DNA of 64,000 nt, taken from the sequence record OQ174501.1; one strand, written 5' to 3'. Both the position numbers and the translations under genes were made by a program. Numbering within the stretch: position 1 is the stretch's first letter; the number at the start of each line of letters is the position of its first letter. Origin of the DNA: Escherichia phage REP2. Shown piece after piece: positions 27,831 through 38,705 of this stretch. The notes under the pieces are model-generated. The model made no database searches and was not told the origin of the DNA. It saw only the letters and a program-made list of their open reading frames with translations.

Positions 27831-28527
<697 letters not shown>

Positions 28528-28535
<8 letters not shown>

Positions 28536-28557
28536 GCTGATGAGGTAGTGATACTAT
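28528..28557 (+). promoter_or_regulatory. T4-type early promoter
   Basis: GTTTAC-N18-TGATACTAT. Confidence 0.7.
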
Positions 28558-28587
28558 TATCTCATCAAAATTAATTAGGAAAATAAA

Positions 28588-28845
28588 ATGAAAACTTTCA
28601 AAGAGTTTACTACAAAAACTACTATCACTGAATCTTCCCACGGTATGGAAGTAAAGCTTGGAATGGCTTTAGCTGAAGCTGAGCGTCTTTTCTCTCGTAT
28701 TAAAGAACTTGCTGCTGCAGTAGATCCTTCATCTTTTAAAGGAGACCAAACGAAAGTTAAAGCACTTTTAGCATTATGCTCCGATGCAGGAGAAATTGCT
28801 AAAAATGGTTCTAAGATGAAAAAACGATTAGAAGATTTAAAATAA
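28588..28845 (+). CDS. internal-protein-like protein with CTS-like N-terminus
   Basis: 85 aa starting MKTFKEFTTK, resembling the T4 capsid-targeting sequence MKTYQEFIAE; own early promoter. Confidence 0.6.
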   Translation: MKTFKEFTTKTTITESSHGMEVKLGMALAEAERLFSRIKELAAAVDPSSFKGDQTKVKALLALCSDAGEIAKNGSKMKKRLEDLK

Positions 28846-28865
28846 TTTCACAAAGTTGTTTACAT
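28831..28865 (+). repeat. direct repeat, copy 2
   Basis: same 31-nt sequence as 28501-28535. Confidence 0.7.
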
Positions 28866-28887
28866 AGGGTTTTAGTTGTGATACTAT
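28858..28887 (+). promoter_or_regulatory. T4-type early promoter
   Basis: GTTTAC-N18-TGATACTAT. Confidence 0.7.
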
Positions 28888-28921
28888 TACCCTATCAAAA
28901 CAAAACCAAATGGAAATCAAA

Positions 28922-29155
28922 ATGAAAACTTACCAAGAATTTATTGCTGAAACTGCTGATGTAAAAGTTGAGTTTATTTACACTGGCAAGAAAGATAAAA
29001 TGGGTGAAATGCCTCATGGAGTTCTTCGTGATGCATTAGATAATTTCGGTCAACTCGCCGCAGAAGATTACGGTGATAAAATTGTTGTTACTGGTCCTGC
29101 TGCAGTTATTGAAAAATGGGCAGCAGAAAATAAATCAATTTTTCGTAAAAAATAA
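28922..29155 (+). CDS. internal protein with canonical CTS
   Basis: 77 aa starting exactly MKTYQEFIAE; own early promoter. Confidence 0.7.
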   Translation: MKTYQEFIAETADVKVEFIYTGKKDKMGEMPHGVLRDALDNFGQLAAEDYGDKIVVTGPAAVIEKWAAENKSIFRKK

Positions 29156-29185
29156 GTTTACTTTTAGATGGGGTAGTGATACTAT
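29156..29185 (+). promoter_or_regulatory. T4-type early promoter
   Basis: GTTTAC-N18-TGATACTAT, then leader CCCTATCAACTACTGAGGAG. Confidence 0.65.
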
Positions 29186-29213
29186 TACCCTATCAACTAC
29201 TGAGGAGAATAAA

Positions 29214-31950: not shown

Positions 31951-32000
31951 CAAACACTTGCCTTAGCAGGTGGAACCCCGACAAGGTTGCCGCAAGGCTT

Positions 32001-32030: not shown

Positions 32031-32038
32031 TATAAATA
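32031..32038 (+). promoter_or_regulatory. T4 late promoter TATAAATA
   Basis: exact TATAAATA about 37 nt upstream of the ORF at 32075. Confidence 0.5.
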
Positions 32039-32074: not shown

Positions 32075-32548
32075 ATGAAATCATATGCTCAATTTTTAAA
32101 TGAAGCGGTGTTAAATGAAGCATCTAGCACTGAAATTCAAGCTGTTGCAAAAGCTGCCATTGCCGCGGGTAAATATTCCTATAAAGATGCTTCCGATGAA
32201 TCACGATTCCAATTTGCTCGTGATATGAAAGCCGAAGGATTTACAGGGAATGCAGTTAGTATGGCTTGGAAAAGTTTAGTTGCTACTGGAGCTGCTTTTG
32301 CAAAGGCTTCGGGTAAACCTGCTCCTAAAGCAGATCCTAAAGCTGCACAAGAAAAAAATATTGTTAAAGGAATTATCTCCAAATATGAAGCTATCCTTAA
32401 AGAGCTTTTAGTAATCAAAACTGAAGGCCAAAAGCTAGCTCGTGCTTATAGTTTCAAAGATAACCCACATGCTCACTCTCTTGAGTATGTTGAAGACATC
32501 CAAAAAATTATTAAAGACCGCATTTGGTCTGCTAAACAAATCAAATAA
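32075..32548 (+). CDS. internal-protein-like protein with CTS-like N-terminus
   Basis: 157 aa starting MKSYAQFLNEA; Ala/Lys-rich; late promoter upstream and terminator downstream. Confidence 0.55.
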   Translation: MKSYAQFLNEAVLNEASSTEIQAVAKAAIAAGKYSYKDASDESRFQFARDMKAEGFTGNAVSMAWKSLVATGAAFAKASGKPAPKADPKAAQEKNIVKGIISKYEAILKELLVIKTEGQKLARAYSFKDNPHAHSLEYVEDIQKIIKDRIWSAKQIK

Positions 32549-35287: not shown

Positions 35288-35772
35288 TTTTAAAAACTCG
35301 CTGGTATGATTTAGATGATGGGGACGATGGCATTTCAGTTGATAGAGTTGACTGGAGTGGCTGTTCCGAAGATATGAAAAAATTGTTAATTAGGGAGTTT
35401 AGAATGGGATATCAAGCAGCTAAGCCATCTACTGTAACAGATGATAAATTCGTGTGTATTCAAAATGGTCGTGCTAAGTTAACGAACGCTGATTGGTTCA
35501 CAGATAAGAAGGTTATTCTGTGGTATATTATTAGTTTTCCTGTGACATCATTTGTATTTTGCTTCTTTGGAGAAAGTCCAGTAGGCAGAACGGAAGATTG
35601 GATTCTTTTAATTATACTTGTTAATATTTTTACAGCAGCAGTACTATCAGGAATATGGTGCGTGTTCATTGAAATGCCATGGCGGTTACGTAGGCAGCAA
35701 AAGATTTTTGATGAAAAGAAATATACTCAAAATTTAAATAATTTTATCACTGAATGCAGGAAATTAAAATGA
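35284..35772 (+). CDS. small membrane protein, paralogue family member
   Basis: 162 aa, 2 TM helices, C-terminal FITECRKLK. Confidence 0.55.
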   Translation: MILKTRWYDLDDGDDGISVDRVDWSGCSEDMKKLLIREFRMGYQAAKPSTVTDDKFVCIQNGRAKLTNADWFTDKKVILWYIISFPVTSFVFCFFGESPVGRTEDWILLIILVNIFTAAVLSGIWCVFIEMPWRLRRQQKIFDEKKYTQNLNNFITECRKLK

Positions 35773-36208
35773 AAACATTATCAGCTGGTATTATCTTTAT
35801 GACAGAAGATAAAGATTTATTTATGGGACGAGTTACTGGTTCTCGTAAGCCTGGAATGATGGCACATCGCTGGATATTCCAAAGGGGCGTGTAGAAAATT
35901 CTGATTTAAGCGCATTAGATGCAGCACGAAGAGAATGCTCAGAAGAGACTGGTTTTAACAATTATAATCCAGACCTTCTAGAAGACCTAGGTGTATTTAA
36001 ATATTCTAGTAATAAAGACTTACAGTTATTTTATTATACGATTCCAGTAGAGCATGAGATGTTCAGAAATTGCCGTTGTGAGTCTTATTTTGAAAATAAA
36101 GATGGCGTTATGATTCCAGAGATGGATGCTTTTGCTCTTATTCCTCGTACTCAGTGGCAATATGTGATGGGTCCTTCACTTTACCGAATAATGAACAGCC
36201 TCTTTTAA
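35769..36208 (+). pseudogene. nudE: Nudix hydrolase nudE (e.1), frame disrupted
   Basis: ATG frame reads MKTLSAGIIFMTEDKDLFMGRVTGSRKPGMMAHRW then stops at about 35892; the -1 frame continues DIPKGRVENSDLSALDAARRECSEETGF... (Nudix box) to a stop at about 36206; a single missing G in CTGG-GAT would join them. Confidence 0.6.
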
Positions 36209-36739
<531 letters not shown>

Positions 36740-36743
36740 AGTT

Positions 36744-36773
36744 GTTTACTTTCTTCTAGAATTGTGATAGTAT
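36744..36773 (+). promoter_or_regulatory. T4-type early promoter
   Basis: GTTTAC-N18-TGATAGTAT upstream of denV. Confidence 0.65.
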
Positions 36774-36798
36774 ATTCACAGTTACTTGGAGGGATAAA

Positions 36799-37215
36799 AT
36801 GACTCGTATTAATTTGACTTTAGTATCTGAACTTGCTGATCAACATTTAATCGCAGAATACCGTGAATTGCCACGCGTTTTTGGTATAATTCGTAAGCAT
36901 GTGGCAAACGGTAAGCGCGTTAAAGATTTTAAAATATCTTCCGAGTTTATTTTAGGTTCTGGTCATGTTACGTTCTTTTACGATAAGTTAGAATTTTTGC
37001 GAAAGCGTCAATTAGACATTATAACGGAATGCTTAAAACGCGGGTTCAGTATAAAAGATACTGAAGTTCCTGACATCAGCGATATTCCAATAGAATGGAA
37101 AAATGATTATAATCCATGCAAATCAGCTATTAAATTGAGTCAACAACGACTTGATGAAAAAATTTTAATGAAACCACACTGGTATAAGTATTACGGTAAA
37201 AATATTTACATTTAA
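36799..37215 (+). CDS. denV: endonuclease V (pyrimidine-dimer DNA glycosylase) DenV
   Basis: 138 aa [29 protein letters not shown]..., matches remembered T4 DenV. Confidence 0.95.
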
Positions 37216-37224
37216 AGGAAACAT

Positions 37225-37698
37225 ATGAAAACATATCAAGAATTTATCACTGAAGCAGCTATTAATTCTCAAATTATTGCTGAATCTTTTACCGATCTTT
37301 TGAAATTTAAAAAAGGTCAAAAAATCACTGCTGTATTGGATGATGGTACAGAAGTTGAGATGGATGTACAGGGATATAATTATGCAGTAGATGGAAAACT
37401 GTATAATAAATCTCATGCTAAATTTGATTCATTTGACGACTTTGTTAATACAGTTGAAGATGAAAAAACTCGTAGATCCATTGCAACTGGCGACGCTAAG
37501 GTTCTTATGGCACATGGCCATGAACGCATCCGCGCTAAACAGAATAAAATGGGCGAAGATAATTTTGCATTAGTTGGTTATCAATCTGGTAAACAAACTT
37601 ATGGCTATCAACGTACTGCTACCATGTATAATAAAAATGGTAAAATCGCTTTCGTGAATAGTAAAGGTTCTATTCAGTACGTTAAATCGTTCAAATAA
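37225..37698 (+). CDS. internal protein with CTS (ipII/ipIII-like position)
   Basis: 157 aa starting MKTYQEFITE; basic, Lys/Gly-rich body. Confidence 0.65.
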   Translation: MKTYQEFITEAAINSQIIAESFTDLLKFKKGQKITAVLDDGTEVEMDVQGYNYAVDGKLYNKSHAKFDSFDDFVNTVEDEKTRRSIATGDAKVLMAHGHERIRAKQNKMGEDNFALVGYQSGKQTYGYQRTATMYNKNGKIAFVNSKGSIQYVKSFK

Positions 37699-37839
37699 TA
37701 TGGGAACAACCTGGACCTCATGATTCTATGAGGGATTCCCGCCAACCTGTAATAAGGTCGAGCCTGAGTGCGGTAATGGGTAAATACAGAAATGGACAAT
37801 TCATGCGCCACGGAATGGCCCAAATTTAGAGAGAATAAA

Positions 37840-38379
37840 ATGAGAACATTTTTAACTGGTCCTTATCTATCCCTGATGAATGCTTTTACACACCATTCTG
37901 ACGCTAGAGTAGAAGAAATTTGTAAAAACGAATATATCCCGCCATTTGAAGAATTACTTAAACAGTACTGCACACTTCGACTAGATGGTGGACGTCAATC
38001 TGGTAAATCAACTGCAGTAACTAATTTTGCCGCTAATTGGTTGTATGACGGTGGAACAGTTATTGTTCTTTCTAATACTTCAGCTTACGCTAAAATTTCT
38101 GCAAATAACATTAAAAAGGAATTTTCGCGTTATTCTAATGATGATATACGTTTTCGTTTATTTACTGATTCTGTACGCAGTTTTATTGGTAATAAAGGAA
38201 GTAAGTTCAGAGGTTTATCGCTTTCGCGAATTTTGTATATAATTGACGAGCCTGTCAAATCTCCTGATATGGATAAGATTTATAGTGTCCATATTGACAC
38301 TGTACACTGCTGCTGTAATATTAAATGTTGTATTGGTGGTATTACTCGTCCACAGTTTTTCGTAATCGGAATGCAATGA
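37840..38379 (+). CDS. P-loop NTPase with C-terminal Cys cluster
   Basis: 179 aa; Walker A GGRQSGKST, Walker-B-like LYIIDE; HCCCNIKCC near C-terminus. Confidence 0.55.
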   Translation: MRTFLTGPYLSLMNAFTHHSDARVEEICKNEYIPPFEELLKQYCTLRLDGGRQSGKSTAVTNFAANWLYDGGTVIVLSNTSAYAKISANNIKKEFSRYSNDDIRFRLFTDSVRSFIGNKGSKFRGLSLSRILYIIDEPVKSPDMDKIYSVHIDTVHCCCNIKCCIGGITRPQFFVIGMQ

Positions 38380-38705
38380 TGACAGACACACAGCTTTTCG
38401 AATATCTCTATTTTTCGCCAAAAACTATTAAAAATAAATTGGTAAATCATTTTGAAATTTTGGCAAATAACAACATTTTAAGCGAATTTTATCCCAAGCA
38501 ATACAAATTACAAAAAGGCGTATTCAAAGGATGCAGAGTTTTGTGCACGGCTCCTAATGCACGGCTAATGAATAAAATTCCATATTTTACCATGGAATTT
38601 ATTGATGGGCCTTTTAAAGGACTAATCACACAGAGTTTAATGGCATATGATTCTGAGCCATTTTTAATTAAAGAACAATCTTGGATAAATTTATTTTCTA
38701 ATTGA
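38376..38705 (+). CDS. hypothetical protein
   Basis: 109 aa; start overlaps upstream stop (ATGATGA). Confidence 0.5.
   Translation: MMTDTQLFEYLYFSPKTIKNKLVNHFEILANNNILSEFYPKQYKLQKGVFKGCRVLCTAPNARLMNKIPYFTMEFIDGPFKGLITQSLMAYDSEPFLIKEQSWINLFSN

Follow-up and report, generated by a model that had tools for sequence, protein, structure and literature searches.

The 157-aa open reading frame (ORF) that follows denV in Escherichia phage REP2 is, by its sequence, the catalogued gene ip4 (ipIV) of T2-type phages, which makes it an ordinary and already known difference from T4. Our overall reading is that ip4 probably encodes a T-even internal protein that is packaged, injected and blocks a GmrSD-type enzyme, and that its arrangement results from cassette exchange. 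Throughout, the window is the whole stretch of 64,000 nucleotides (sequence record OQ174501.1) that was analysed, and all positions refer to it unless another record is named. The features of the locus are as follows.

36245..36739, + strand: e, T4-type lysozyme (Pfam Phage_lysozyme), the upstream anchor of the locus
36740..36798, + strand: e-denV spacer with one PeSL-like element, which consists of an early promoter and an imperfect palindrome
36799..37215, + strand: denV, endonuclease V, a pyrimidine-dimer glycosylase (Pyr_excise, PHROG 1183)
37197..37247, + strand: ip leader (RBS GGAAAC..ATG) with the first 23 nt of targeting-sequence coding, 51 nt in all
37225..37698, + strand: ip4 (ipIV), 157-aa internal head protein precursor with an ATG start, assigned by Pfam, PHROG and near-identity matches
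37702..37839, + strand: conserved downstream joint GGGAACAACCTGGACCTCATGATTCTATGAGGGATTCCCG..., annotated in T4 as the 5' part of vs.8
37840..38379, + strand: vs.8 homologue, P-loop-like and of unknown function, the downstream anchor (PHROG 1488, REP3 CDS, T4 vs.8 translation)

Identity, conservation and distribution of Ip4

The N-terminus of the ORF (n = 157 codons) reads MKTYQEFITEAAINS. Residues 1-10, MKTYQEFITE, form a capsid-targeting sequence that is identical at nine of ten positions to the MKTYQEFIAE of T4 IPII and IPIII, which agrees with the near-exact match described in the initial annotation, and the I-x-E motif is retained at residues 8-10 (I-T-E). The family assignment extends over the full length of the protein. 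Pfam DUF7412 (PF24183) was matched with 319 bits against a cut-off of 27 (E 5.7e-96, profile positions 1-157 of 158), and PHROG 3155, 'internal virion protein', with an E of 6e-102 (1-157 of 157). The protein is 100% identical to T2 ipIV, RB32 Ip4 and ipIV of Yersinia phage PST, and RB51 Ip4, whose record carries the note 'similar to T2, RB70 Ip4', is 99.4% identical. The best match in the BFVD structure library was UniProt Q38388, 'Ip4 [Enterobacteria phage K3]', at 99% identity. Ip4 of T2, K3, RB70, RB32, RB51 and PST is thus the same protein, with the same length and targeting sequence, and nothing of substance differs. Over 36200-38400 the nucleotide sequence has 100% identity to that of the Tequatrovirus REP3 (Escherichia phage, OQ174502), where the ORF is annotated as 'internal virion protein', and hundreds of other T4-like phages are 96-98.5% identical over the same region. 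The original description of Ip4 is presumably that of Repoila et al. 1994. Our literature searches on Ip4 function yielded nothing, and likewise no virion data on Ip4. Little of this is new, as public annotation and publications on T-even genome plasticity already cover the gene with its name and position and the polymorphism of the ip locus.

Judged from the full-length family matches, the existing records and the restriction of changes to synonymous sites, ip4 is a real gene and a chance ORF is excluded. Comparison of the coding sequences shows ip4 to be under strong purifying selection, with the window copy differing from that of T2 at 15 of 474 nucleotides, all of them synonymous and 0 non-synonymous. 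Ip4 was found in 470 phage records, 290 of which carry it at a protein identity of at least 99%, and a further 160 at 60-80% identity in other genera; homologues outside the genus include those of Klebsiella, Salmonella and Serratia phages. An alignment of 14 family members contained many invariant Gly, Tyr, His and Lys positions within residues 46-139. A profile search of 1.8 billion representative proteins returned only 7 matches, every one a DUF7412 member or fragment, together with a spurious repeat match to an adhesin-like protein of 1879 aa, which was rejected. One longer contig of a distant DUF7412 member ended at the gene and gave no useful gene context. The distant metagenome members (<40% identity) start MNFEQFLNE or MNFKDFLNE, which is targeting-sequence-like (M-x-F-x-x-F-L-N-E), so that the signal persists where the DNA no longer shows homology. 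No internal protein at the e..vs.8 locus is commoner or more widely distributed than Ip4, which occurs in Tequatrovirus, Jiaodavirus, Gelderlandvirus and Serratia phages.

Gene order and cassette borders between e and vs.8

The initial annotation had placed ipIII and ipII between e and denV in T4, which is correct, the order in NC_000866 being e, ipIII, ipII, denV, vs.8, vs.7, and had placed a single ip-like gene after denV in the present phage. Alignment with T4 gave the same picture, with the order e–denV–ip–vs.8 in the window and both ipIII and ipII missing between e and denV. In a six-sequence BLASTP search the best E of Ip4 was 0.021 (20 bits) against IPII and 2.5 against IPIII, and the proteins belong to separate PHROG and Pfam families; we therefore rejected Ip4 as a homologue of either. 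Neither high identity to these proteins nor the T4 gene order was found, so the observation of a different ip gene after denV and its interpretation as a change in the locus both stand. Ip4 does resemble IPII and IPIII in its targeting sequence, in its genomic interval (e..vs.8), in its basic mature protein (pI 9.1, basic like IPII* and IPIII*) and in a presumed common life cycle of packaging, cleavage by gp21 and injection. The mature bodies, however, are unrelated in sequence, and the slot of ip4 lies after denV whereas theirs lies before it.

The suggestion that the ip locus was rearranged or replaced in this phage was supported, with two corrections. Relative to T4 the ip content is replaced and reordered, but the arrangement is not peculiar to the phage, since ip4 is already named in T2, K3, RB32, RB51 and PST and the arrangement predominates among database records. 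The synteny in RB51 is e-denV-Ip4-vs.8, exactly as in the window. Counting phage records in which the block was covered to at least 80%, the window-type block was present in 314 and the T4 ipIII-ipII block in 61. T4 is therefore the minority arrangement, with the window type about five times commoner in the database, and an expectation centred on T4 has to be corrected, as denV-ip4 is the common order and ipIII-ipII-denV that of a minority. The gene content directly after e varies among relatives as listed here.

T6: regB directly; ip, denV and vs.3-8 absent
T2: ip4, without denV
T4: ipIII-ipII-denV
The window and RB51: denV-ip4
JK38: denV-ip10-ip4
Klebsiella Jiaodavirus KP182: Ip4 homologue (69% identity) and another ip
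Salmonella Gelderlandvirus STML-198: Ip4 homologue and another ip

The presence of ip4 therefore varies even among close relatives, with T2, RB51 and JK38 carrying the gene and T4 and T6 lacking it. In T2 the context also differs from that in the window, as ip4 stands directly after e and has an ipIII-type leader. Since denV is missing from T2, T6 and the Klebsiella and Salmonella relatives, denV is itself one of the variable cassettes. The window denV is a diverged allele, with 77% amino-acid and ~70% nucleotide identity to T4, while the adjoining 3' end of e is ~95% identical. The locus is better described by different cassette content in one hyperplastic interval (e..vs.8, or e..regB) than by an ip gene that has moved. 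In T6 (MH550421, 60494-61511) e adjoins regB, the minimal form of the hyperplastic region. A comparison of PST with T4 by Comeau et al. 2014 identified five internal-protein differences, and these authors recall the shuffling within the ip set described by Repoila et al. 1994 (PMC4122927).

The spacer between e and denV is 59 nt long and the gap between denV and ip4 9 nt. Within the spacer we observed an early promoter, TTTACT-N17-TAGTAT, at 36745-36773, the -10 box of which matches the PeSL consensus at 5/6 positions, the consensus from PST and T4 being TTTACW-N17-TAYWAT (PMC4122927). An imperfect palindrome, GAATTGTGA / TCACAGTTAC, spans this -10 box, and the hairpin has a folding energy of -15.6 kcal/mol (z = -2.84). 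An element of the same type is found in T4 before ipIII and again before ipII, and the ipI-type locus of the window contains related copies (repeat family D3) at 28522, 28852 and 29150. The spacer element thus combines the properties that define a PeSL, an early promoter with a stem-loop, repeated beside variable ORFs. According to a published proposal, PeSL elements drive the shuffling of modules in T4-type phages (Arbiol 2010, PMC2839356; Comeau 2014, PMC4122927). The present locus is similar in that early-promoter and hairpin repeats border variable cassettes. It differs at the joint between denV and ip4, where the border is the ip leader with the targeting sequence and lies inside the denV coding sequence.

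This 51-nt leader block (37197-37247) matches the T4 ipII leader at every position, and the window and T4 have no longer substring in common; the leader of T4 ipIII shares the last 38 nt of the block. As the block covers the stop codon of denV and the six sense codons before it, one recombination joint falls within the 3' end of the gene. At 37183-37215 the DenV C-terminus reads GKNIYI*, against GKAIYA* in T4, and the WYKYYGK just before the changed residues is retained; because the last codons are supplied by the ip leader, this change of the C-terminus is a by-product of cassette insertion. On the downstream side the ip4 stop is followed by GGGAACAACCTGGACCTCATGATT..., and the same sequence follows the ip4 stop in T2 and the denV stop in T4. 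The whole arrangement probably arose by cassette exchange, through recombination between the repeated borders, namely the PeSL-like hairpins and the 51-nt leader with its targeting sequence.

The downstream joint also bears on the annotation of vs.8. T4 vs.8 (NC_000866 64253-64912) is annotated as 219 aa with the start MRDSRQPVIRSS..., and in the window the corresponding N-terminal extension (37730-37839) hits a stop codon (…GMAQI*). In the annotations of REP3, RB51 and T2, vs.8 is shorter and begins MRTFLTG. Despite the stop codon in the window, the 5' stretch is well conserved in its DNA, and either the T4 vs.8 start is over-extended or 37730-37839 has a non-coding role. A structured RNA in the GC-richer segment 37700-37800 was considered and rejected, with no Rfam match and a fold z of -1.29; the segment is simply the conserved 5' region which the T4 annotation assigns to the start of vs.8.

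Proposed expression, processing and function of Ip4

The late-promoter core TATAAATA occurs twice just upstream of e, at 36211 and 36224, and an exact core was not found directly before ip4. Late expression of ip4 is therefore probably by read-through across e-denV-ip4. Early expression probably comes from the PeSL-type promoter in the e-denV spacer. A generic scan for sigma-70 promoters and terminators gave no more sites than shuffled sequence, a scan that misses the T4-type early promoter.

In T4 the targeting sequence directs the precursor to the scaffold core, where the gp21 protease removes it after (L/I)-x-E, and it suffices to package foreign proteins (PMC3012670). By analogy, the Ip4 precursor would be made late and carried by its targeting sequence into the scaffold core of the prohead, and the gp21 prohead protease would cut after Glu10 and perhaps a second time after Glu20. 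Only two [LI]-x-E motifs occur in Ip4, at residues 8 and 18. The second is I-A-E at residues 18-20, and E20 is nearly invariant in the family alignment. Glu20 may thus be a second cleavage site, yielding a mature form of 137 residues. The predicted mature protein has a mass of 15.5-16.5 kDa, a pI of 9.1-9.3 and 17 Lys; this basic protein would be packed with the DNA and injected with it into the host.

T4 IPI*, a GmrSD inhibitor for which an NMR structure has been solved, likewise belongs to the small injected proteins with a targeting sequence, and its gene lies in a second hyperplastic ip locus. The internal proteins of T-even phages have been described as a varied group with defence functions, in which the targeting sequence is the one common element (PMC3012670). 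Each of the T4 proteins Ip1, Ip2 and Ip3 is an inhibitor of a different GmrSD-type Type IV enzyme, and none protects against the enzyme of another (PMC12373910); host-range data are available for IPIII (PMC9391042). As each of the three blocks a different GmrSD, the best guess is that Ip4 blocks yet another. Once injected, Ip4 would most likely bind and block one specific host GmrSD-type Type IV enzyme that attacks glucosyl-hmC DNA. T2 remains sensitive to the GmrSD of ECOR21 and of ECOR17 (PMC12373910), and since T2 encodes Ip4 and is nevertheless restricted by these enzymes, Ip4 would be inactive on those two. Here Ip4 differs from T4 Ip2 and Ip3, which have known GmrSD targets that T2, as an Ip4 carrier, cannot overcome (PMC12373910). 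We tentatively suggest, on grounds of analogy and with rather less assurance than we attach to the overall reading, that Ip4 is an injected inhibitor of a novel defence enzyme, most likely a further GmrSD variant distinct from those of CT596, ECOR21 and ECOR17.

The target need not be a GmrSD enzyme. Ip4 could be an injected effector against some other defence system, a host nuclease or protease, or a competing phage, and the lack of sequence relationship to Ip1, Ip2 and Ip3 would fit such a role, as would the sensitivity of the Ip4 carrier T2 to two GmrSD variants (PMC12373910). The homologues in Klebsiella, Salmonella and Serratia phages likewise suggest a target that is widespread in Enterobacterales. 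Against this, positive evidence for any alternative target is lacking and the only known function in the internal-protein class is inhibition of Type IV restriction, and we regard a different kind of target as unlikely, although it is the strongest of the competing explanations.

A mainly physical role, in which packaged Ip4 neutralises DNA charge and aids packing or ejection with no specific host target, appears to us more doubtful still. The pI and the 17 Lys of the mature form would suit a counter-ion, and lysines of the T4 internal proteins contact DNA phosphates in the head (PMC3012670), but a counter-ion needs no strictly conserved folded body, whereas Ip4 has accumulated 0 non-synonymous against 15 synonymous changes from T2 and keeps many invariant Gly, Tyr and His positions across genera. 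T4 and T6 also manage without Ip4, and all three of the T4 internal proteins tested (3/3) had specific targets (PMC12373910). The targeting sequence might alternatively be a recombination scar, with Ip4 acting in the infected cell and not packaged in useful amounts. The leader and targeting sequence do form a 51-nt block common to the cassettes, which recombination could have kept, and the e-denV spacer carries an early-type promoter; but DUF7412 relatives at <40% identity keep a targeting-like start where DNA homology is gone, and the targeting sequence is sufficient to package foreign proteins (PMC3012670), which leaves a scar a highly improbable explanation. If the preferred reading of Ip4 as an injected inhibitor is true, the enzyme it blocks would stand in the way of T-even phages widely across the Enterobacterales, since no other internal protein at the locus is as common or as widely spread. 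Ip4 is an obvious candidate for target screens like those that assigned GmrSD targets to Ip2 and Ip3, a matter of relevance to host-range prediction for therapeutic T4-like phages.

Other targeting-sequence genes and side observations in the window

Three further ORFs in the window begin with a targeting or targeting-like sequence.

28588-28845: 85-aa ORF starting MKTFKEFTTK, a degenerate targeting sequence in which I-x-E at 8-10 is absent
28922-29155: 77-aa ORF starting MKTYQEFIAE, PHROG 8111, equal in length to the T6 gene annotated Ip6
32075-32548: 157-aa ORF starting MKSYAQFLNE, targeting-sequence-like, PHROG 2280 'unknown function'

The body of Ip4 had been described as unlike those of the other ip-like ORFs, and we found no significant similarity to the ORFs at 28588, 28922 or 32075. 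A relationship of Ip4 to the equally long 157-aa ORF at 32075 was considered specifically and rejected, as similarity is absent and the PHROG differs. The first two ORFs, Ip5-like and Ip6-like, make up the second ip locus (28500-29200, the T4 ipI position), and a 71-nt PeSL-like repeat (family D2) precedes each of them. Taken with ip4, they give the phage a T2/T6-type Ip4/Ip5/Ip6 set and none of T4 Ip1, Ip2 or Ip3.

The ORF at 32075 has its own exact late-promoter core TATAAATA at 32031, and a GC-rich hairpin with a T-run, CTTAGCCCCGACCGAAAGGTTGGGGCTTTTT, occurs at 31998 and 32553 on either side of it. Lying immediately after the tRNA cluster, the segment 31998-32588 resembles an independent late cassette, and the ORF is possibly an unannotated internal protein.

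Upstream of e, nudE (35765-36208) carries a 1-bp deletion relative to RB51 in a G run near 35871 (CGCTGGGAT to CGCTGGAT). In place of the 146-codon gene the frameshift leaves two ORFs of 46 and 49 aa, and the REP3 annotation contains only a 126-nt 'nudix hydrolase'. The lesion marks either a genuine pseudogene or a sequencing error that affected the homopolymer in the deposited sequence.
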